From positions 1 through 36,437 of the forward strand of contig CAYWWB010000005.1 in NCBI GenBank assembly GCA_964462045.1: a stretch of 36,437 bases of DNA. The letters are read 5' to 3'. Positions 4,947 to 30,657 of this stretch are shown here, piece by piece. This DNA is from Candidatus Woesearchaeota archaeon. Its GTDB lineage: Archaea > Nanobdellota > Nanobdellia > Pacearchaeales > GW2011-AR1. The first letter of the stretch is position 1; every line of letters starts with the position of its first letter. Both the position numbers and the translations under genes were made by a program. The notes under the pieces are model-generated. The model saw only the letters and a program-made list of their open reading frames with translations, did no database searches and was not told the origin of the DNA.

Positions 4947-5094
4947 ATTAAAAAAAAACATATGAATTATATAAATCTTATTAAATATAAAAATAGAAAA
5001 AATCAAACGTTCCCCGAATCAGGCCTCACTCACTTCGTTTGTTCAACTTATTTCGTATTTCTAACAAGTGAAGAAGAAATCCAAAATAAACCTT

Positions 5095-5149
5095 GTTCGA
5101 TTCTCCTTCTTTTTGTTGAATAGGATAACCGCCCCCGCCCCGAATCGAA
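5095..5149 (-). repeat. 55-bp direct repeat, copy A (orphan tRNA-Ser 3' fragment plus the same 35 bp)
   Basis: Perfect copy of 5229-5283 at a 134-bp offset. It lacks the 5' strand of the T stem and everything upstream, so it is not a functional tRNA. Confidence 0.95.
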
Positions 5150-5228
5150 TAAAAAGTTTCCGAAAAAGAGGAAGTTTTTAATTCGCCCGTATTTCCTTAC
5201 ATAGATGCGGAAATCCAGACGAAACCCA

Positions 5229-5283
5229 GTTCGATTCTCCTTCTTTTTGTTGAATAGGATAACCGCCCCCGCCCCGAATCGAA
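5229..5283 (-). repeat. 55-bp direct repeat, copy B (last 20 nt of tRNA-Ser plus 35 bp downstream)
   Basis: gttcgattctccttctttttgttgaataggataaccgcccccgccccgaatcgaa, identical to 5095-5149. Confidence 0.95.
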
Positions 5284-5344
5284 CGGGGATGCCCCGAAGG
5301 GCCTCGGTCTCAAGCCGAGTGCAATACCATTATGCGACGGAGGC
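5264..5344 (-). tRNA. tRNA-Ser (anticodon UGA), class II with long variable arm, no encoded CCA
   Basis: Hand-folded on the minus strand. Acceptor GCCUCCG/CGGGGGC (one G-U pair). Anticodon stem CUCGG/CCGAG with loop CUUGAGA. Variable arm CCC-UUCG-GGG. T arm CCCCG-UUCGAUU-CGGGG. Discriminator G. It is a GC-rich island in AT-rich DNA. Confidence 0.85.
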
Positions 5345-5388: not shown

Positions 5389-6864
5389 CTATTTTACAAA
5401 AATTTCTTTAGTCCTTTTATAATAATTTTCTGCTTCTTTTAATCTTTTTTTTGATTCTGAATAAATTGTTAAAACTTTTTCTCCTTTTTTTACTTTTTCT
5501 CCTTCATGAAAATATAAATACAAACCGGATTTTTTATCAACAGGACATCCTGCAATCCTAGCAAGAGTATTAATTTTTTTTGTATCTATTTCCCTTATCT
5601 TAAAAGATGAATTTGCAAGAATATCTTTTTTATTTCTTGCAGGTTTTAATTTATTAAAATCAATATCTCCATTTTGTGCTTTTATAATTTCTTTAAATTT
5701 TTCTAAAGCCTTTCCTGAATTGAGAATTTCTAAAGCTTTCTCTTTCCCTTTTCCGTTTTTCACTTTTTTTGTTAACTCTAATAATTCTCCTGAAAGTTCG
5801 ACTGCTTTTCTTCTTAATTCTCTTGGGCCTTGTTTTTTTGGATTAAGAACTTTTATTACATCAATCATTTCTAAAACAGGGCCAACCCCTTTCCCATAAG
5901 GTCCTTTATTATAAGAAATCATACATTTCATTTTAATATTGAATTTTTTTGCAAGTTTTTGAAATTTTGATTTCAATCTTTCTGCTTTTTTCTTATTTAC
6001 TTTTGCATATTTTCCATAAGGCAAATGAATCACTATATGATTGCTTCCAGAAGCTAATTTTTTTGACATTATAGAAGCTAAAAGTTGTGCTTCAGGATCT
6101 ATCCCTAATAATTTTTCTACTTGGATAATTTTACTATCTGCGGGAACCATCTCTAATCCTCCTCCCCAAACAATACATCCTCGGGTCTTTCTAACTATTT
6201 TTTCAACTTCTTTTGGGCAGAATTCTACTTCACAAAGAGTTTCCATGGCATCTGCAGTTCCTGAAGGAGTTGTTATTGCTCTTGAAGAAGTTTTAGGAAT
6301 AGTTAATCCTGCAGAAGCACATATTGAAACGACAAGAGGAGTTACTCTTCCAGGAATGCCTCCAATAGAATGTTTATCTGCTATTATTTTATCCCTTAAA
6401 TTTAATTTGTTTCCTGTTTCAAGGATTCCTTCAATTAAATATTCTGTTTCTTTCATGTTCATTCCGTGTTGATACATACCAGATACAAAGATAGCTATTT
6501 CAGGTTCTGATAAAGAATTCTTCACAATGTCTTCCATAATATCTTTTATTTCTTTTCTAGAAAGATGATGTCCTTGAAGTTTTTTCTTTATCCATTCCAA
6601 ACTTTTTGGGGAAGAAGCCAAATTTATATCTACTTTTTGATTTTTGTTTAGTTTTAATTTATGTATTATTTCTTCTGAAACTGCTATTTCATTATCCTTA
6701 AGTAATTTCCCAACAGTATCTACAACTGTAACAAGTTCTCTTGTAGAAGTTTTTATTTCAATCCTATCCTTTTTTCTTACTCCTAATTTCTTCGCAGTCC
6801 CTTCACTAATCATTGCAACAGGAGCCCCTGCATACCAATTCAAATCTCTTATTTTTAATTCCAT
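5389..6864 (-). CDS. deoA: AMP phosphorylase (thymidine-phosphorylase family, archaeal type with N-terminal extra domain)
   Basis: 491 aa. Has the N-terminal domain typical of archaeal AMPpase (MELKIRDLNWYAGAPVAMISE...) followed by a nucleoside-phosphorylase family II core (DKHSIGGIPG, TSSRAITTPSGTAD). Confidence 0.85.
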   Translation of the reverse strand: MELKIRDLNWYAGAPVAMISEGTAKKLGVRKKDRIEIKTSTRELVTVVDTVGKLLKDNEIAVSEEIIHKLKLNKNQKVDINLASSPKSLEWIKKKLQGHHLSRKEIKDIMEDIVKNSLSEPEIAIFVSGMYQHGMNMKETEYLIEGILETGNKLNLRDKIIADKHSIGGIPGRVTPLVVSICASAGLTIPKTSSRAITTPSGTADAMETLCEVEFCPKEVEKIVRKTRGCIVWGGGLEMVPADSKIIQVEKLLGIDPEAQLLASIMSKKLASGSNHIVIHLPYGKYAKVNKKKAERLKSKFQKLAKKFNIKMKCMISYNKGPYGKGVGPVLEMIDVIKVLNPKKQGPRELRRKAVELSGELLELTKKVKNGKGKEKALEILNSGKALEKFKEIIKAQNGDIDFNKLKPARNKKDILANSSFKIREIDTKKINTLARIAGCPVDKKSGLYLYFHEGEKVKKGEKVLTIYSESKKRLKEAENYYKRTKEIFVK

Positions 6865-6865
6865 T

Positions 6866-7903
6866 TTAAATTATTTTTTTTTGAATAAAAACATCTGGAG
6901 TCTTTTTGTTTTTATATAATTCTAACACAATTAAAAGATATGCTAAAATAAGAGGGCCCAAAATAACTCCCAAAATTCCAAACATCAAAAGTCCTCCAAT
7001 CATTCCAATTAAAACTATTGAAGAATTTAATTGAGTTCTTTTAGAAATAAAAATAGGTTTAAACATATTTTCTATTAATGCAGAAAGTATTCCAAAAATA
7101 AGTATTCCTATAGTAGCTATTACATCTCCTTGGATTAAAAAATAGATTGTCATAGGAACCCAAACTAAAGCTGTTCCAATAATAGGAAAAATACCTGCAA
7201 GAGCTGCAACCAGTGTTAAAAGTAATGCGTTAGGAACTCCAAAAATAAAAAAACCTATCCCTACGACTAAACCCTGAACAATACCTAAAACAACTTGTCC
7301 ATAAAGAACAGATAAAGTTATATCTTTAGAAGATTTAAAAAGTTTGTTTTTAGTGTTTTCAGGAAAAGGCAATAAGTTTTGAATATATTCCAATAACAAT
7401 CTTCCATCCCTTAAAGTAAAAAAGAAAGTAAAAAGCACAACTAAAAATTGTAAAAAAAGTGTGGGGAAATTCATAATTAAATCTGTAAAAGAATTCATTA
7501 TGGTATTGGTTGTTTTGGTAATAAAAGAATGAATTACAGAAGCCATTTCATTAGACAGGTGTTCTGAAGAAAAAAATTCAGGAAGCAAATTTTTTATAGG
7601 AGTTATATAGTCTGCTTGTTGTGAGGCTGTGTAAACTTTTATTGATTGATTAATAACTGCAGGGGTTAAATACCAAATTGGAATTATAATTAAAATCACT
7701 AAAATCAAACACATTAAAAAAGCTGCCCAATTTTTAGATTTTAGTTTTTTTCTTGTCCAAATAAATATTGGAGAAAAGATAAACGCTAACAAAATACCTG
7801 TAATTATAGACATTAAAATTGGTTTTAATAAAAAGAAAGACAAAACAATCAATGCTATTAATAAGATTGAAACCATTACTTTCCTATAAATATCTTGTTC
7901 CAT
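6866..7903 (-). CDS. AI-2E family (PerM/UPF0118) transporter
   Basis: 345-aa polytopic membrane protein with typical AI-2E architecture. Its stop lies 1 nt before the AMP phosphorylase start, so the two are probably co-transcribed. Confidence 0.7.
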   Translation of the reverse strand: MEQDIYRKVMVSILLIALIVLSFFLLKPILMSIITGILLAFIFSPIFIWTRKKLKSKNWAAFLMCLILVILIIIPIWYLTPAVINQSIKVYTASQQADYITPIKNLLPEFFSSEHLSNEMASVIHSFITKTTNTIMNSFTDLIMNFPTLFLQFLVVLFTFFFTLRDGRLLLEYIQNLLPFPENTKNKLFKSSKDITLSVLYGQVVLGIVQGLVVGIGFFIFGVPNALLLTLVAALAGIFPIIGTALVWVPMTIYFLIQGDVIATIGILIFGILSALIENMFKPIFISKRTQLNSSIVLIGMIGGLLMFGILGVILGPLILAYLLIVLELYKNKKTPDVFIQKKII

Positions 7904-11955: not shown

Positions 11956-12348
11956 ATGGAACATAAAAAAGAATTTACATATAGAGGAAAGAATATTGAA
12001 GAATTAAAAAAACTTAGTTTGAAAGAGTTTGCAGACTTGTTAGTCTCAAGACAAAGAAGAACTCTTTTAAGGAATCTTCAGGAAACACAAAAATTTATTG
12101 AAAGAATAAAAAATAAAGAAAAGAAAAATAAAAGGATTAAAACCCATAAAAGAAATGTTGTTATTGTTCCAGAATTAGTTGGAAAAGAAATTAATGTATA
12201 TAAGGGGAATGGTTTTGGACAAATTAAAATTACAGAAAAAATGTTGGGACACAAATTAGGAGAATTTGCACTAACAAGAACAAGAGTCAACCATGGAAGT
12301 GCAGGAGTGGGTGCAACCAAAGGAAGTAAACATAAATCAATGAAATAA
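11956..12348 (+). CDS. rps19: 30S ribosomal protein uS19
   Basis: 130 aa. Motif GHKLGEFALTRT. Conserved position after uL2. Confidence 0.95.
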   Translation: MEHKKEFTYRGKNIEELKKLSLKEFADLLVSRQRRTLLRNLQETQKFIERIKNKEKKNKRIKTHKRNVVIVPELVGKEINVYKGNGFGQIKITEKMLGHKLGEFALTRTRVNHGSAGVGATKGSKHKSMK

Positions 12349-12349
12349 A

Positions 12350-12433
12350 ATGACAGAAGAAAATTCAAAAAATTTGAAAGAAATTTTTAGTTTGTTCGCT
12401 TTTCCAAATAAGGAAAATCAAATAAATCAATGA
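12350..12433 (+). CDS. Micro-ORF 1 (27 aa, MTEENSKNLKEIFSLFAFPNKENQINQ) inside repeat cassette copy 1
   Basis: Its ATG lies 1 nt after the uS19 stop. It reads through the cassette in the same frame as micro-ORFs 2 and 3. Translation is unproven. Confidence 0.4.
   Translation: MTEENSKNLKEIFSLFAFPNKENQINQ
12366..12422 (+). repeat. Intergenic repeat cassette, copy 1 (uS19|uL22 junction)
   Basis: The 46-nt core caaaaaatttgaaagaaatttttagtttgttcgcttttccaaataa is identical to copy 2. There is a 7-nt deletion relative to copies 2 and 3, then the shared ggaaaatcaaa. Confidence 0.9.
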
Positions 12434-12439
12434 AATAAA

Positions 12440-13126
12440 ATGACAGAAGAAAAACAAAACAAAACAACTGAAGAAAAGAAAAAACCAAATGAAAAGAAAG
12501 AAGAAACAAAAAAAATAGTTAAAACTCAAGAAAAACAAAATCCAGAAAAAACTAAGGCAAAGAAAACTGAAAATAAAGAGGAGAAAAAACCAGAAATTAA
12601 AAAAGAAAAAACTAAAGAAAGGGAAAATAAGGAAACAAAAAAGGAATCTTCACAAGAAAAAAAAGAAGAGAAAAAACCAGTAACAAAAACTCAAGAAAAA
12701 GTTACAGAAAAAAAAGAATATGCTGTTGTTAATGGGAAAAATCTTCCAATTTCAACAAAACAGGCAGTTGCAATTTGTAAATTTATTGTAAAGAAAAAAA
12801 TACCTCAAGCAATAAAAGATTTAGAAGAAGTTGTCAAAATGAAAAAAGCAGTTCCAATGAAAGGTGAAATAGCCCACAAAAAAGGGAAAGGAATGATGTC
12901 AGGAAAATATCCTGTCAAAGCTTCAAAAATTTTCATTAGATTATTAAAAAATCTCGGAGGCAACACAATTACAAACAATTTAGATAACCCTATAATTTCG
13001 GAAGCTATTGCTAATCAAGCATCAAGACCAATGGCAAAATTTGGGAGATGGGAAAGAAAAAGAACACATGTCAAAATAATTGCAAAAGATAAAAAACAAA
13101 ACAAGGAGAATAAAAAACAAAAATGA
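12440..13126 (+). CDS. rpl22: 50S ribosomal protein uL22 with ~95-aa Lys/Glu-rich N-terminal extension
   Basis: 228 aa. The C-terminal ~130 aa are L22-like (AVAICKFI..., GRWERKRTHV). The N-terminus is low-complexity K/E/T. Confidence 0.92.
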   Translation: MTEEKQNKTTEEKKKPNEKKEETKKIVKTQEKQNPEKTKAKKTENKEEKKPEIKKEKTKERENKETKKESSQEKKEEKKPVTKTQEKVTEKKEYAVVNGKNLPISTKQAVAICKFIVKKKIPQAIKDLEEVVKMKKAVPMKGEIAHKKGKGMMSGKYPVKASKIFIRLLKNLGGNTITNNLDNPIISEAIANQASRPMAKFGRWERKRTHVKIIAKDKKQNKENKKQK

Positions 13127-13176
13127 AAACAAAAATAAATTTTTTCATCCAATCAAATAAGGAGGAATTTTATTAG
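13123..13176 (+). CDS. Micro-ORF (17 aa, MKTKINFFIQSNKEEFY) in the uL22|uS3 spacer
   Basis: Its ATG overlaps the uL22 stop (ATGA). Its TAG lies 1 nt before the uS3 ATG. The spacer resembles the 3' half of the cassette (ttttc..caaataaggagg). Confidence 0.3.
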   Translation: MKTKINFFIQSNKEEFY

Positions 13177-13177
13177 A

Positions 13178-13915
13178 ATGGAAGAAAGAAAATCAGTTAA
13201 ATTAAAGAAAGATGAGTTTGCTATTAAAGAATATGTTAAAAGAAATTTAGGAAAAGGGAAAGCAAGCAAGGTTACTATTGAATATACCCCTGTAGGAGAG
13301 AAGATAGTTGTATCAACAAGTCGTCCAGGTTTGGTTATTGGTAGGGGGGGAGAAAAAATAGATGAATTGACAAGAGTTTTGAAAAAAGAATTTAAGTTAG
13401 GAAATCCAAAAATAGAAATAGACCAAATACAAGAACCAGAATTTGACGCTCAGTTAATGGCAGATAGTATTGCTCTTGCTTTGGAAAAAAAAGGCCCACT
13501 AAAATTCAAAGTTATTGCATATAGAACCCTTCAAAAAATCATGGATACAGGGGCATTAGGAGTAGAAATAAGATTAAGTGGTAAACTTCCTAGCTCAAGG
13601 GCTAAGAGTTGGAGATTTGCTCAAGGATACCTAAAAAAAACAGGAGAAACAAAAGGGATTGTAGATAAAGCGCAATCAATCGCCCAAACAAGACCGGGAA
13701 CTGTGGGAGTAAAAGTAAGTATTATCTCACCTCATGTCAAACTTTTAGATAGAATAAATATTGATGAAGAATTAATTAAAAAATTAAAAGAAAATTCAAA
13801 AGAAAAAGAACCTGAAGAAGAAAAAACAACAAGCAGAACTAAAGGTTCTACCTCGCCTGCTAAAAATGTCGGACGAAAGAAAAAATCAACTAAAAAACAA
13901 GAAAATAAAAAATGA
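13178..13915 (+). CDS. rps3: 30S ribosomal protein uS3
   Basis: 245 aa. KH-domain motif GRGGEKIDEL. Has a K/E-rich C-terminal tail. Confidence 0.95.
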   Translation: MEERKSVKLKKDEFAIKEYVKRNLGKGKASKVTIEYTPVGEKIVVSTSRPGLVIGRGGEKIDELTRVLKKEFKLGNPKIEIDQIQEPEFDAQLMADSIALALEKKGPLKFKVIAYRTLQKIMDTGALGVEIRLSGKLPSSRAKSWRFAQGYLKKTGETKGIVDKAQSIAQTRPGTVGVKVSIISPHVKLLDRINIDEELIKKLKENSKEKEPEEEKTTSRTKGSTSPAKNVGRKKKSTKKQENKK

Positions 13916-14001
13916 AAATCAAAGAAAATTCAAAAAATTTGAAAGAAATTTTTAGTTTGTTCGCTTTTCCAAATAAAAATGGAGGAAAATCAAACAAATG
14001 A
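13912..14001 (+). CDS. Micro-ORF 2 (29 aa, MKIKENSKNLKEIFSLFAFPNKNGGKSNK) inside cassette copy 2
   Basis: ATGA overlap with the uS3 stop at its 5' end and ATGA overlap with the uL29 start at its 3' end. Confidence 0.4.
   Translation: MKIKENSKNLKEIFSLFAFPNKNGGKSNK
13931..13997 (+). repeat. Intergenic repeat cassette, copy 2 (uS3|uL29 junction)
   Basis: 67 nt, identical to copy 3 except for one base (g/c). Contains agaaatttttag and a GGAGG about 12 nt before the uL29 ATG. Confidence 0.92.
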
Positions 14002-14180
14002 AAACCAAAGAAATAAGAGAAATGAAAAAAGAAGAAAGAGATAAAAAAATGAAAGAATTAAAAATGGAATTAATCAAATCAGGAGCAAGTGATCAAAATT
14101 CAAACTCAAAGAAAAAAGAAATTAAAAAAACAATTGCTAAGATACTTACCATAAATAAATCAGAGGAGGAAAAAAAATAG
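13998..14180 (+). CDS. rpl29: 50S ribosomal protein uL29
   Basis: 60 aa. MKTKEIREMKKEERDKKMKELKMEL is a typical L29 helix. Conserved position after uS3. Confidence 0.92.
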   Translation: MKTKEIREMKKEERDKKMKELKMELIKSGASDQNSNSKKKEIKKTIAKILTINKSEEEKK

Positions 14181-14483
14181 ATGGAGATTTGTCCTAAATG
14201 TGGATTACCTCAACAAGCTTGTATTTGCGAACAAATCACAAAAAGTTCACAAAGAATAAAAGTTACAACAGACAAAAAAAGATATGGTAAAATTGTAACG
14301 ATTGTTAGTGGATTTGAAAGTGAAGTTGATACAAAACGTATTGCAAAGACATTAAAAAACAAACTCGCTTGTGGAGGAACATATAAGGAAAATTCAATAA
14401 TACTCCAAGGAGATCACAAAGGAAAAATAAAACCTGTTCTTATCAAAGAAGGATTTGATGAAGACTCTATTGAAGATGAATAA
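14181..14483 (+). CDS. Translation initiation factor aSUI1 (eIF1 homologue)
   Basis: 100 aa. N-terminal Cys knuckle CPKCG...CIC followed by a SUI1 fold sequence (RYGKIVTIVSGF..., LACGGT). The position between L29 and S17 is known in archaea. Confidence 0.9.
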   Translation: MEICPKCGLPQQACICEQITKSSQRIKVTTDKKRYGKIVTIVSGFESEVDTKRIAKTLKNKLACGGTYKENSIILQGDHKGKIKPVLIKEGFDEDSIEDE

Positions 14484-14484
14484 A

Positions 14485-14823
14485 ATGACTGAAGAAAAAC
14501 AAACAAAGAAAAACAATAAAGAAGAACTAGCTAAAGCCCTAAAAAAAGATAAAATAAGTACAAGAGGGAAAACTTTCCAAGGTAAAGTTATAAGAAAATT
14601 CTATAAAAGAATAACTATAGAATTTGAAAGAATGATTTATGTTAAAAAATATGAAAGGTATATGAAATCTCGAACAAAAATACATGCAAGACTTCCTGAA
14701 GAATTTGAAAAAGAAGTTAATGTGGGGGATTTAGTAAAGATTCAAGAATGTAGGCCATTGAGTAAAATTGTTCACTTTGTATTCCTAGAAAAACTAAAAG
14801 ATGCCTCAGAGGTAACACAATAA
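14485..14823 (+). CDS. rps17: 30S ribosomal protein uS17
   Basis: The track ORF starts at 14455 inside SUI1. An in-frame ATG at 14485, 1 nt after the SUI1 stop, is the likely start (MTEEKQTKK...). S17 core: GKVIRKFYKRITIEFE...VKIQECRPLSK. Confidence 0.92.
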   Translation: MTEEKQTKKNNKEELAKALKKDKISTRGKTFQGKVIRKFYKRITIEFERMIYVKKYERYMKSRTKIHARLPEEFEKEVNVGDLVKIQECRPLSKIVHFVFLEKLKDASEVTQ

Positions 14824-14824
14824 A

Positions 14825-14911
14825 ATGAAATCAATAAATACAAAAAATTTCAAAGAAATTTTTAGTTTGTTCGCTTTTCCAAATAAAAATGGAGGAAAAT
14901 CAAACAAATGA
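14825..14911 (+). CDS. Micro-ORF 3 (28 aa, MKSINTKNFKEIFSLFAFPNKNGGKSNK) inside cassette copy 3
   Basis: Its ATG lies 1 nt after the uS17 stop. Its TGA overlaps the uL14 ATG (ATGA). Confidence 0.4.
   Translation: MKSINTKNFKEIFSLFAFPNKNGGKSNK
14841..14907 (+). repeat. Intergenic repeat cassette, copy 3 (uS17|uL14 junction)
   Basis: 67 nt, identical to copy 2 apart from one base. Confidence 0.92.
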
Positions 14912-15309
14912 AATCAGTAAATGCAAGGACAACAGCAGGATTAAACTTAGGAGCAAAAGTTTTTGCTATAGATAATAGTGGAGCAAAAATGGTTAAAATA
15001 GTTTCAGTTAAAGGAGGAAAAGGAACAAAAGGTAAACAAGGAAAAGCAAAAGTAGCAGATCAGGTTAAAGTAGCTGTTAAAAAAGGTAAACCTGATGTAA
15101 AGGGAAAAGTTTTTCCTGCGATTGTTTTAAGACAAAAAAGACCCTACAGAAGATTAAATGGGGAAGTGGTTTCATTTGAAGATAATGCAGTAGCATTATT
15201 AAAAGATGAAAAAGGAAATCCTAAAGGAACACAAATTAAAGGAGTAATAGCTAGAGAGGTTCAAGAAAGATGGCCTCAAGTTGCTAAAATAGCTAATATA
15301 GTTTATTAA
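14908..15309 (+). CDS. rpl14: 50S ribosomal protein uL14
   Basis: 133 aa. L14-like sequence and conserved position. Confidence 0.95.
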   Translation: MKSVNARTTAGLNLGAKVFAIDNSGAKMVKIVSVKGGKGTKGKQGKAKVADQVKVAVKKGKPDVKGKVFPAIVLRQKRPYRRLNGEVVSFEDNAVALLKDEKGNPKGTQIKGVIAREVQERWPQVAKIANIVY

Positions 15310-24291: not shown

Positions 24292-25149
24292 TTATTTTTT
24301 ATTTTTTTTATGTTTGTGTTTTTTAACAAACCACCTTATAATTAAAAATAAAACAACTACTCCTAGTAAATAAACCCACCAAGAAATTTCTTTTCCATTT
24401 TCTTGAGTTTTTTCAAAATATTTTGGATTAAATTCGATTGTTTTATTCAAACTTCTTCTTTCATTTATCTCGTCAGTGTAATTTATGTGTAAAGTAATAT
24501 CTCCTTCAAAAGCTTCAGCAGTATAAGTAAACTCTGTTTCTTCATTGTTATCTAAAGAACCAACAATTTCTTTAGGAGACTGATGTAAAATAAAATTTTC
24601 TTGTTCAGGAATTTCAATTGTTAGTGCCTCAATATCATATTCTCCTGTATTTAATATTTCAAAAGTAATTTCATGATTTGATTGGGAAAATTCTTTAACA
24701 TGAATTTCAAAATCTACTTTCACGTCTTCTATTTTTATGTCAAACTTTTTTGAAAGAGAAAAATCTTTGAATGAACTTCCTTGACTAAATCTTGCTTCAA
24801 TTTGATTAAACCCATCTATTGCATTTTTATCAACTCTCAATTTATATGGAATCATCCAGGTTTTTTTATAATCATTTACATAAGTAGAACCAGGTAAAAT
24901 TTCTAAAGCACTTTCTCCTTTATCTAATGAAAAAGGATACTGAGGAATTAATTCAAAAACAGCTCCATTGCAATTAGAATTTTGCAATCCACTTAATTGA
25001 AAAACAACTTCAACATATTCTCCTGGAACAGCAGGATAAGGGTCTTGATTTACTAGAGAAGCATTTAAATCACAGGTAGTAGTTCCTGCAGAAACTAAAC
25101 TCATAAAAAACAAACTTGCTAAAACAAAAATAAAAAAATTTTTACTCAT
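24292..25149 (-). CDS. Secreted, C-terminally anchored surface protein (CARDB / COG1361 S-layer-domain-like, tentative)
   Basis: 285 aa. Signal peptide MSKNFFIFVLASLFFMSLVSA, a beta-rich body, a C-terminal TM segment (WWVYLLGVVVLFLII) and a basic tail. It is divergently adjacent to a MacB-type ABC transporter, a pairing common in archaea. Confidence 0.5.
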   Translation of the reverse strand: MSKNFFIFVLASLFFMSLVSAGTTTCDLNASLVNQDPYPAVPGEYVEVVFQLSGLQNSNCNGAVFELIPQYPFSLDKGESALEILPGSTYVNDYKKTWMIPYKLRVDKNAIDGFNQIEARFSQGSSFKDFSLSKKFDIKIEDVKVDFEIHVKEFSQSNHEITFEILNTGEYDIEALTIEIPEQENFILHQSPKEIVGSLDNNEETEFTYTAEAFEGDITLHINYTDEINERRSLNKTIEFNPKYFEKTQENGKEISWWVYLLGVVVLFLIIRWFVKKHKHKKNKK

Positions 25150-29812: not shown

Positions 29813-29851
29813 AATTATAAAATAAATCAAAAACAAAAAATGACACAAGAA

Positions 29852-29872
29852 TAATCTTTTCAAAAAAGATTA
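29852..29872. repeat. Hairpin element copy B (taatctttt-caa-aaaagatta) in the secY|DUF106 spacer
   Basis: 9-bp stem with a 3-nt loop, followed by gacaaaa. The same element occurs at 26-46. Confidence 0.8.
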
Positions 29873-29886
29873 GACAAAACCAAAAA

Positions 29887-30657
29887 ATGACACAAGAAGA
29901 TAAAGAAAAAGAAGTGAATGTTCCTGTGAAATATAATCCTGAAACTGGAAAGTATGAAGCAGATTCAGAAGAACTGAATAAGAAGATTGAAAAGATGAAT
30001 GAAAATAGCGAAGAGAAAAAGGAAAATTCAGAAGATAAAAAAACTGAAGAAAGTTCAGAAGAAGAACCTGAAAAAGAAAAACTTCAAGATAATAAACCAA
30101 AAAAAGAAAAGAAAAAAAGCGAGGGAAGTTTTGCGCCTATGATTTTTGTTATGTTAATTTCCCTAGTTATTGCAGGGTTGTGGGAAAGAGTTCCTGCAAT
30201 AGGAAATACTATTCATGCTGGTTTAGATCCTGTATTTGGAAATTTATTAGATTGGCATCTTGAAATTGGTATGTTGCTTATTGTGATTTTAATTTCTGTT
30301 TTAACAACAGTAGTTCAAAAATATACAACAGATCAAGAATCTCTTAAAGAAATAAAAAAAGAGCAAAAAGAAATACAAAAAGAAATGAAAGAGTGTAGAA
30401 AAAATGGAAATCAAAAAAGAATGATGGAACTTAATAAAAAACAAATGAAACTTGCTCCAAAGCAAATGAAATTAAGTATGAAATCTGTTGCTTATACAGG
30501 TGTTCCTTTTATTTTATTAATAAGATGGTTTCAGGATTATTTTGCAAATGCAGACGGAGAAAAAAAGTTATTTGGATTTATGGGATGGTTTATATTTTAT
30601 CTTTTAGGAGCAATAATAATTGGTTCTATACTTAGAAAAAAAATGGATGTTGCATAA
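29887..30657 (+). CDS. DUF106 / EMC3-TMCO1-like (archaeal YidC/Oxa1-like) membrane insertase with ~85-aa acidic N-terminal extension
   Basis: 256 aa. TM1, then a charged coiled coil (KEIKKEQKEIQKEMKE...MMELNKKQMKLAPKQMKL), then TM2-3. This is typical of the family usually found near secY in archaea. Confidence 0.8.
   Translation: MTQEDKEKEVNVPVKYNPETGKYEADSEELNKKIEKMNENSEEKKENSEDKKTEESSEEEPEKEKLQDNKPKKEKKKSEGSFAPMIFVMLISLVIAGLWERVPAIGNTIHAGLDPVFGNLLDWHLEIGMLLIVILISVLTTVVQKYTTDQESLKEIKKEQKEIQKEMKECRKNGNQKRMMELNKKQMKLAPKQMKLSMKSVAYTGVPFILLIRWFQDYFANADGEKKLFGFMGWFIFYLLGAIIIGSILRKKMDVA

Follow-up and report, generated by a model that had tools for sequence, protein, structure and literature searches.

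Mycobacterial interspersed repetitive units (MIRUs) are repeated units of 40-100 bp, of which the M. tuberculosis H37Rv genome has 41 loci (PMC2734929). They insert at start codons and contain an internal open reading frame (ORF) that is coupled at -4 nt (PMC12548453, summarising Supply et al. 1997). This -4 arrangement has been shown experimentally to couple translation in one archaeon and in E. coli (PMC6728339, PMC10666635), and a spacing of approximately 20 nt nearly abolishes termination-reinitiation coupling in the same two kinds of host (PMC10666635). The present analysis concerns a window of 36,437 nucleotides of Candidatus Woesearchaeota archaeon (contig CAYWWB010000005.1, assembly GCA_964462045.1), in which a short cassette interrupts the S10/spc operon of ribosomal-protein (r-protein) genes at three junctions. 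The cassettes are probably recent copies of a small non-autonomous MIRU-like junction element that colonises co-directional stop/start junctions and preserves termination-reinitiation coupling. Literature searches returned no description of such elements in archaea. To this extent the original prediction, which knew of nothing like the cassette in archaeal r-protein operons, was right; the closest described system, the bacterial MIRU, had been overlooked (PMC12548453).

In architecture and logic, the cassette may be regarded as an archaeal analogue of the mycobacterial MIRUs. Both are short repeated units present at several loci, the cassettes measuring 58-68 nt, which the duplicated target brings to 83-95 nt. 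Both occupy many co-directional junctions, are apparently mobile and are inserted at start codons. They lie in the sense orientation at their junctions (21/21 inserts here) and carry an ORF of the same orientation with downstream coupling at -4 nt (ATGA), a layout read as minimising the effect on expression. MIRUs can also occur in tandem, and two adjacent units are found in one relative here (L011). In contrast, the host of the cassette is an AT-rich DPANN archaeon, whose closest named homologues, judged by uS3, are Pacearchaeota, whereas that of the MIRUs is a GC-rich actinobacterium; judged by domain of life and base composition, homology between the two is not plausible. The cassettes further differ in their long and variable target duplications (up to 32 nt), and in carrying their own Shine-Dalgarno (SD) sequence at the native spacing with a hairpin over it. 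They are mostly single units rather than variable-number arrays, and the copies seen so far reside in r-protein operons.

An exact core of 46 nt occurs three times on the plus strand, at 12366-12411, 13931-13976 and 14841-14886, and none of 100 dinucleotide shuffles contains a match. Copies 2 and 3 differ by 1 nt across the 67 nt preceding the next ATG, while copy 1 has a 7-nt deletion that takes out most of the GGAGG. The cassette has an A+T content of 78%. The gene order around the numbered copies is uL3-uL4-uL23-uL2-uS19-(1)-uL22-uS3-(2)-uL29-SUI1-uS17-(3)-uL14-uL24-eS4-uL5-uS14-uS8-uL6-eL32-eL19-uL18-uS5-uL30-uL15. The remaining junctions measure -26 to +5 nt, the exceptions being uS8/uL6 (approximately 11 nt) and uL22/uS3 (51 nt). 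The core, the near-identity of its copies and the three micro-ORFs running through them had all been described in the original prediction and were recovered, with a terminal ATGA overlap in copies 2 and 3 only. Its statement that neighbouring genes elsewhere in the operon overlap or are a few nucleotides apart also stood, apart from uS8/uL6, which exceeds the range given. Assembly artefact, raised there as an alternative, was rejected. Two runs of this strain that were assembled independently in Logan (SRR15425352, SRR15425355) give contigs that end precisely at the repeated 30-mers, the behaviour expected of a genuine repeat in a k=31 graph. In addition, a relative from a different sample (L006) holds three diverged copies that were assembled through.

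Each cassette is bracketed by a direct duplication of its own target junction, downstream ATG included (Table 1), a feature absent from the earlier description. Insertion duplicates the junction (by 18-32 nt here); the upstream gene retains its stop and the downstream gene an intact start. The micro-ORFs begin with MTEE, MKIKE and MKSIN because these are copied N-termini of uL22 (MTEE), uL29 (MKTKE) and uL14 (MKSVN), respectively. Across the family the duplications measure 32, 18, 21, 17, 13 and 4-12 nt and are thus variable in length. Both joints of copy 1 show a microhomology of 4-6 nt, and a re-alignment of the right joint onto an ATGAAA within the uS19 tail would explain the extra-long duplication of this copy. 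The cassette termini read ATTCAAAAAATTT... and ...GGAAAATCAAAC; terminal inverted repeats are absent and the hairpins are internal only. A simple tandem duplication of the junction was rejected, as the neighbouring genes are not the source of the inserted core.

Table 1. Coordinates of the cassettes, their target duplications and micro-ORFs, the fourth spacer, and comparable units in relatives
Feature	Position	Strand	Remarks
Copy 1, left target copy	12332-12363	+	32/32 nt identical to 12422-12453; final uS19 codons and stop, uL22 ATG and MTEE codons
Copy 1, inserted cassette	12364-12421	+	58-60 nt, edges blurred by microhomology; nhmmer E = 9e-14
Copy 1, right target copy	12422-12453	+	True uL22 start at 12440; duplicated uS19 tail gives the micro-ORF stop at 12431-12433
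Micro-ORF 1, MTEENSKNLKEIFSLFAFPNKENQINQ	12350-12433	+	Begins 1 nt past the uS19 stop; ends 6 nt short of the uL22 ATG
Copy 2, left target copy, uS3 stop/uL29 start (AAATGAAAAtCAAAGAAA)	13910-13927	+	17/18 nt against 13996-14013 (AAATGAAAAYCAAAGAAA)
Copy 2, inserted cassette	13928-13995	+	68 nt; A/T hairpin 13932-13953, second hairpin 13955-13995; SD GGAGG 13981-13985, 12 nt ahead of the uL29 ATG at 13998
Micro-ORF 2, MKIKENSKNLKEIFSLFAFPNKNGGKSNK	13912-14001	+	ATGA overlap at both ends; ATG-to-ATG distance 86 (2 mod 3)
Copy 3, left target copy, uL14 start (AAATGAAATCAaTAAATaCAA)	14823-14843	+	19/21 nt against 14906-14926 (AAATGAAATCARTAAATRCAA)
Copy 3, inserted cassette	14844-14905	+	62 nt; SD GGAGG 14891-14895, 12 nt ahead of the uL14 ATG at 14908
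Micro-ORF 3, MKSINTKNFKEIFSLFAFPNKNGGKSNK	14825-14911	+	Begins 1 nt past the uS17 stop; TGA overlaps the uL14 ATG; ATG-to-ATG distance 83 (2 mod 3)
Fourth spacer, uL22/uS3	13123-13177	+	Micro-ORF MKTKINFFIQSNKEEFY: ATGA overlap with the uL22 stop, TAG 1 nt short of the uS3 ATG
L011, uS17/uL14	7548-7662		Two tandem units, flanked by AATTTGAATGAAA
L014			Units at eL19/uL18 and uL22/uS3
L021			Units at uL4/uL23, uL5/uS14, uL22/uS3 and uL30/uL15
L024			Near-identical family of its own at uL5/uS14, uS14/uS8 and eL32/eL19; further insert at uS8/uL6

Three relatives (L006, L007 and L008) have uS3 proteins that are 95-97% identical to that of the window. In L006, the uS19/uL22 junction (...AAATCAATGAAATAAAATGACTGAAGAAAAA) is empty and reads TAA-A-ATG, the empty site that the original prediction had proposed to look for, and uS17/uL14 is likewise empty, with an ATGA overlap. 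L007 and L008 both have an empty uS3/uL29 junction (ATGA overlap) and an empty uS17/uL14 junction (8 nt). Diverged copies are found in L006 at uS3/uL29 (micro-ORF MKQINIKNFKEIFNFFAFPIKCRGKSKK), at uL14/uL24, which is empty in the window (micro-ORF MKSGDTKNLRMNGKEFFSLFAFPSKYGGKSNK, with an in-frame insertion), and ahead of uL15 (micro-ORF MAIKKTHKTKNLKIFSLYVLMEVKK). With close relatives either empty at these sites or bearing diverged copies elsewhere, the cassette is an insertional element. The reading as a miniature mobile element, one of four proposed earlier without a preference, is borne out by the empty sites, the differing junctions between genomes and the target duplications.

The same architecture is present at different junctions in more distant relatives, whose uS3 proteins are 75-77% identical (Table 1). 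Sequence-related or analogous inserts fill r-protein junctions across Pacearchaeota over the range of 75-97% uS3 identity. Some of them can be aligned to the window cassette, for example ATTATTAGCTCATTCA and TCCAAATAAATCATAGAGG, joined by a three-position gap, against ATTTTTAGTTTGTTCGCTTTTCCAAATAAAAATGGAGG. The L024 family (NCBI GCA_964653965.1) lies at 5602-5673, 5905-5944 and 7325-7392, with the micro-ORFs MKIKNNFQAFKLQKIGVWKGVRI, MKIKNNFQGVRI and MKIKNNLQAFKLHLHGIWVGVRI. The GGAG of the SD sequence is paired with a CUCC arm in both of its long copies. With this family, an element of the same kind has expanded independently. The two-unit case in L011 is the only tandem array, every other copy being single.

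An nhmmer profile search of the window and of 180 kb of related loci revealed no other family copies, and the copies are all sense and confined to junctions. An exact 20-mer of the core gave one chance match in the genome contig collection, in a Nanosyncoccus contig with dissimilar flanks, and no match in the metagenome contig collection. A degenerate two-block pattern gave only two chance matches among the metagenome contigs, within a GC-rich bacterial gene, and uL14 gave no match among viral contigs. A weak cassette-like match in the window at 7739-7776 (nhmmer E = 0.008, approximately 79% identity to TTTTAGTTTGTTCGCTTTTCCAAATAAAAATGGAGGAAAA) lies antisense to an AI-2E transporter gene (6866-7903, minus strand). 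Since L006 does not keep it at that place, chance is the probable cause.

A stop-free micro-ORF bridges all of the junction inserts (21/21), starting on or beside the upstream stop and ending -4 to +6 nt from the next ATG. The 3′ end forms an ATGA overlap in 13 of them; in the others, including copy 1 of the window, the stop is located 0-6 nt before the ATG. In 13/13 copies of the ATGA..ATGA type, the ATG-to-ATG distance is 2 mod 3 (35, 50, 53, 53, 62, 68, 68, 71, 74, 83, 83, 86 and 95 nt). The chance of a bridging ORF, as estimated by shuffling, is 0.02-0.18 per copy, with a product of ~5e-8 for six sequence-unrelated representatives. Beyond the operon, the window has eight spacers of 30 nt or more, and not one of them has an ATG at the upstream stop. 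The encoded peptide is free to vary. Pooled over the micro-ORFs, the ratio of non-synonymous to synonymous change (pN/pS) comes to 0.77, from 12 synonymous and 46 non-synonymous differences; the flanking r-protein genes give 0.11-0.25. The W3-L6a pair shows 0 synonymous and 10 non-synonymous differences. No homologue of the cassette peptides, searched in six frames, was found at E <= 10 among 5.8 billion proteins, and Pfam has no match for the micro-ORFs or for a 56-amino acid (aa) ORF of L006 discussed below. The open frame is the conserved property, and the peptide sequence evolves almost neutrally. Of the roles offered by the original prediction, that of a relay gains from a bridging ORF which is kept across diverged lineages while its amino acids drift; that of a functional peptide is not supported, given the pN/pS value and the lack of any Pfam match or homologue.

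The left duplicated ATG opens the micro-ORF through the cassette of 58-68 nt. The 3′ part of the cassette is a portable module for ribosome binding, GGAGG followed by 12 nt and the ATG (...AAATGA), and reproduces the native geometry of the genome, which is also that of uS3 and of the gene that starts at 1697. In the proposed relay, ribosomes leaving the upstream gene would reinitiate on the micro-ORF, cross the insert and unwind the hairpin over the SD sequence and start codon, after which they would terminate and reinitiate on the next r-protein gene. An insertion of 83-90 nt would then leave the termination-reinitiation chain, and with it the r-protein stoichiometry, unbroken, the peptide being a by-product. 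Because a spacing of approximately 20 nt nearly abolishes coupling, an insert of 83-90 nt would uncouple the r-protein genes unless it were translated. The double coupling would arise because the duplicated junction ATG recreates a start beside the upstream stop. The coupling at the right end would follow because genes that start with ATGA offer a +1-frame TGA on their own ATG. Reaching this terminal TGA requires only an ATG-to-ATG distance of 2 mod 3 and the absence of stops, both of which are seen to be maintained.

The ATGA at both ends is the canonical -4 arrangement known from overlapping stop/start pairs (Huber et al. 2019, PMC6728339; 2023, PMC10666635), and the surrounding operon is itself built of junctions of the -4 type. 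Unlike such pairs, the cassettes interpose a non-conserved micro-ORF, which would impose two successive reinitiations, as deduced here from the sequence. Synthetic bicistronic design (BCD) and ribosome delivery by upstream ORFs follow a similar plan (PMC12548453). A short leader ORF holds the downstream SD sequence, its stop overlaps the next start, and translating ribosomes unfold the ribosome binding site and are handed over. The BCD is an engineered 5′ leader, whereas the cassette is natural, repeated, mobile and located between two genes.

The element may have spread by copy-and-paste through short homologies (A-rich gene starts of the type ...AAATGAAA), for example by template switching during replication or by short-homology recombination. 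That this, rather than a fixed-stagger transposase, accounts for the spread is put forward with low confidence. The L006 copies at uS3/uL29 and uL14/uL24 have a uL14-like ATGAAAYMA.. segment as their 5′ end. The common 3′ end AAAATCAAACAAATGA (KSNK, uS3-tail-like) resembles both the uS3 tail of L006 and the native uS17/uL14 junction of L007. A transposase with defined ends is argued against because the duplications range from 4 to 32 nt, terminal inverted repeats are absent, and the ends are imprecise and retain remnants of former targets.

Several points weigh against a MIRU-like element that maintains coupling. The translation of the micro-ORFs and its coupling to the neighbouring genes are deduced rather than observed, and the copying mechanism is conjectural. 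The putative restriction to r-protein operons comes from 36 kb of this genome and from relatives chosen by uS3, and the tight co-directional junctions of the window mostly belong to this operon. Three r-protein spacers of 35-47 nt in relatives have no bridging ORF, namely SUI1/uS17 in L019 and L024 and eL19/uL18 in L024. Copy 1 persists without the ATGA overlap and without most of its SD sequence, and the short L024 copy (uS14/uS8) is without the hairpin arm. Covariation in the hairpin is thin: the two alignments show a single compensatory pair apiece, and RNAalifold scores covariation unfavourably. Finally, cassette nucleotides differ by 4-12% between genomes, compared to 32-55% at synonymous sites. 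This low divergence implies that the copies spread or were exchanged after the window and L006 split, that nucleotide-level constraint acts on them, or both. It could thus reflect a function of the RNA or DNA that goes past mere transparency to ribosomes, instead of recent spread.

The last of these points leads to the alternative that survives best, a selected cis-regulatory RNA whose hairpin hides the downstream SD sequence and start, or a binding or processing site, and tunes the operon, with mobility being secondary. Such a role is doubtful as the main explanation. The open frame would then be a single component of the regulatory device. The cassette is predicted to fold into an A/T hairpin and then a second one, GUUUG..UUUUCC-loop-GGAAAA..CAAAC, lying over the SD sequence and spacer. 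All family copies fold the U-rich 5′ half onto the SD sequence, spacer and start region with negative z-scores (-1.0 to -4.2), placing the SD sequence and AUG within or beside the stem. In L014, L024 and L011 the pairing partner of the SD sequence or AUG is a CUCC or CAUUC arm. The compensatory pair in each family and the conservation above the neutral level are also in line with a regulatory role, and in bacteria the model in which coupling works by RNA unfolding is an established one (PMC12548453).

The hairpin over the SD and start region is nevertheless graded as plausible only, because covariation is thin. Presence or absence at the same junctions among relatives of 95-97% identity implies that no junction requires the module. 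The loss of the SD sequence in copy 1 and of the hairpin arm in the short L024 copy also speaks against such an RNA, and the similarity between sites is equally explained by recent copying. A search of the whole window against Rfam gave 0 matches at the gathering score; at E <= 5, the region 12300-15000 gave only a chance match to a microRNA hairpin on the minus strand. A regulatory RNA role, one of the readings offered by the original prediction, is possible and would be compatible with the relay rather than exclusive of it. An antisense RNA was considered and rejected, as the minus-strand fold has z = -4.0 in one copy but -1.5 and +0.3 in the other two.

The fourth large spacer of the operon, uL22/uS3, carries a GGAGG 12 nt ahead of the uS3 ATG and a predicted hairpin that encloses the SD sequence together with the start codon (z = -3.4). 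It aligns loosely to the cassette and shares its layout, although the family profile scores it at just E = 0.7. It is read here as a relative of the cassette that is both older and shorter. The spacer is kept in L006, L007, L014 and L021 and is missing from L011, L013, L018, L019 and L024. Between the window and L006, it differs at 2/55 nt, with a binomial P of ~2e-8 at a neutral rate of 0.35, by the estimate made in this analysis. A genuine constraint at this spacer is therefore argued, and the 2/55 difference counts among the evidence for a cis-regulatory RNA.

Other small repeats offer a further comparison. Rickettsia palindromic elements (RPEs) are comparable in-frame palindromic repeats, some of which are read through by ribosomes. 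The ORF of the cassette, in contrast, is separate and doubly coupled, not embedded in a host protein. MITEs (miniature inverted-repeat transposable elements) are small non-autonomous, hairpin-prone repeats that survive only where gene function is spared (PMC10969869). It is unlikely, but conceivable, that the cassette is a classical element of the MITE or repetitive extragenic palindromic (REP) type, moved by a transposase (or RAYT/TnpA) acting in trans, with the micro-ORF acting only as a survivorship filter. The small size, the internal hairpins, the several near-identical copies and the insertion polymorphism would all fit, and an essential operon would keep benign insertions only. However, terminal inverted repeats are absent, the duplications have no fixed length (4 to 32 nt), and all copies have a single orientation. 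In addition, the imprecise ends carry fragments of earlier targets, such as the uL14-like 5′ part in L006 and the uS3-tail-like KSNK 3′ end, and no transposase is present within the 36-kb window.

A signal for transcription within the operon is a still weaker candidate. In this case the cassette would act as a promoter (a TFB recognition element (BRE) and TATA box followed by a leader with an SD sequence) or as an oligo-T terminator, resetting or attenuating transcription. Promoters and terminators inside operons are common in archaea, also in r-protein operons, where such short intergenic signals could shift relative expression (PMC10450193). The cassettes contain T5-T6 runs, and 4/13 sense-strand runs in the operon (at least 5 T) lie in the four spacers, which make up approximately 2.6% of its length. 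On the other hand, the nine other T5 runs fall within r-protein coding sequence, so that T5 alone cannot act as a strong terminator, and no T-run exceeds T4 in the related cassettes of L011, L021 and L024. The promoter motif of the genome is RAAACTTTAAAAAYC or TTTATAAA, located 25-38 nt before the ATG of approximately 12 operon-leading genes. The BRE/TATA-like box seen in the original prediction (GAAATTTTTAG) matches this poorly, and the motif expected some 30 nt before the ATG is absent from the cassette. A transcription signal would also leave the open frame and the mod-3 spacing unexplained. Unlike the described r-protein signals, what is conserved here is the frame, phase and SD sequence, not the T-runs.

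The same motif was seen upstream of the genes at 25149(-), 25218, 28367, 30692, 32125(-), 32177, 35027(-), 35102 and 9252. Its position 25-38 nt before the ATG implies that first genes are mostly leaderless; internal genes use GGAGG with a spacer of approximately 12 nt.

A small-protein gene, duplicated inside the operon and encoding a 27-29-aa peptide with a function of its own, is scarcely credible: the frame is open in all copies and a KEIFSLFAFP core is common to five of them, but a core rich in Phe, Leu and Ile follows simply from the coding of a U-rich hairpin arm when the genome is A-rich, the C-terminus of copy 1 is in a changed frame, related cassettes encode unrelated peptides, and both the substitution pattern and the empty protein searches given above are those of a peptide under little constraint. 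An attenuation leader of the Phe type was rejected in view of the few scattered Phe codons, the lack of an alternative terminator structure and the unconserved peptide. A bulge-helix-bulge (BHB) intron, translational bypass and off-target integration of a CRISPR (clustered regularly interspaced short palindromic repeats) spacer were rejected as well, given that one insert keeps recurring and that the genes downstream possess intact starts of their own.

The MIRU-like element that preserves coupling shows how a very conserved and densely packed operon may accept repeated insertions without losing coupled translation. All that the ribosome needs to cross would be carried by the insert or recreated by the target duplication. 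The combination of a relay ORF and an embedded SD sequence is the same design that synthetic biologists reached independently in the BCD. The MIRU principle would thereby extend from mycobacteria to DPANN archaea, implying convergent solutions to one constraint. The mod-3 rule, together with the presence/absence polymorphism, provides a natural experiment on termination-reinitiation in unculturable organisms. There are also practical consequences. Repeats of 30-70 nt fragment short-read assemblies in an operon that serves as a phylogenomic marker (the Logan contigs stop at every copy), and the micro-ORFs escape gene callers.

A broader view is offered tentatively. Pacearchaeota, and perhaps other compact DPANN, may harbour a clade-wide set of self-propagating, translationally transparent junction elements, used by the host through SD-sequestering hairpins and serving also as landing pads. 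If so, such elements would spread by duplicating stop/start overlaps and would ride the termination-reinitiation chain of r-protein operons. Their hairpins would let the host set r-protein stoichiometry, and the landing pads would admit new small genes to core operons, for example the 56-aa ORF between uL30 and uL15 in L006.

The latter ORF (MRLNKIIGNKIREFKEKYEIKNLRYGGFNKQANK...) is part of a stretch of approximately 235 nt between uL30 and uL15 of L006 (14723-14960) that is not in the window, and is followed by a family-A cassette. Its start overlaps the uL30 stop, and stretches resembling the cassette (KNLR..YGG..NK) occur within it. It may represent decayed cassettes fused into an array, or else a small gene brought in with a cassette. 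Several Pacearchaeota operons contain ORFs between r-protein genes (uL3/uL4, uL23/uL2, eS4/uL5 and uL2/uS19) that are unannotated, measure 81-119 aa and belong to no Pfam family. These are located at 1855-2187 in L014; 1628-1888, 2923-3270 and 8013-8372 in L018; 1586-1831 in L013; and 758-1036 in L024. The r-protein operon thus also seems to take gene-sized insertions. The uL22 gene, downstream of copy 1, encodes a Lys/Glu-rich N-terminal extension of approximately 100 residues (12440-12740) with degenerate internal repeats (families D1, D2 and D4). The length of this extension differs between relatives, whose uL22 proteins measure 190-228 aa.

A second small repeat, with an insertion signature like that of the cassette, is located outside the r-protein operon, at 29836-29900. 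It consists of a palindrome, ATCTTTTCAAAAAAGAT, plus TAGACAAAA at 29854-29879, and is flanked by a duplication of approximately 24 nt of the start of the gene at 29887-30657 (CAAAAaCAAAAAATGACACAAGAA and CAAAAcCAAAAAATGACACAAGAA). The left copy of this duplication gives rise to a 4-codon ORF (MTQE, then a stop). A variant of the palindrome is found at 27-56 of the window (region 21-56), upstream of the gene at 131-763. This suggests that the genome has a general process of inserting short hairpin cassettes, accompanied by long gene-start duplications.

Elsewhere in the window, a direct repeat of 96 nt (5054-5149 and 5188-5283, 84% identical) lies next to, and overlaps, tRNA-Ser(tga) on the minus strand (5264-5344), the sole tRNA called by ARAGORN. 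The part shared by the two repeats ends GC-rich, and Rfam at the gathering score, as noted, finds nothing in the window. The repeat may represent an uncalled second tRNA or a tRNA fragment.

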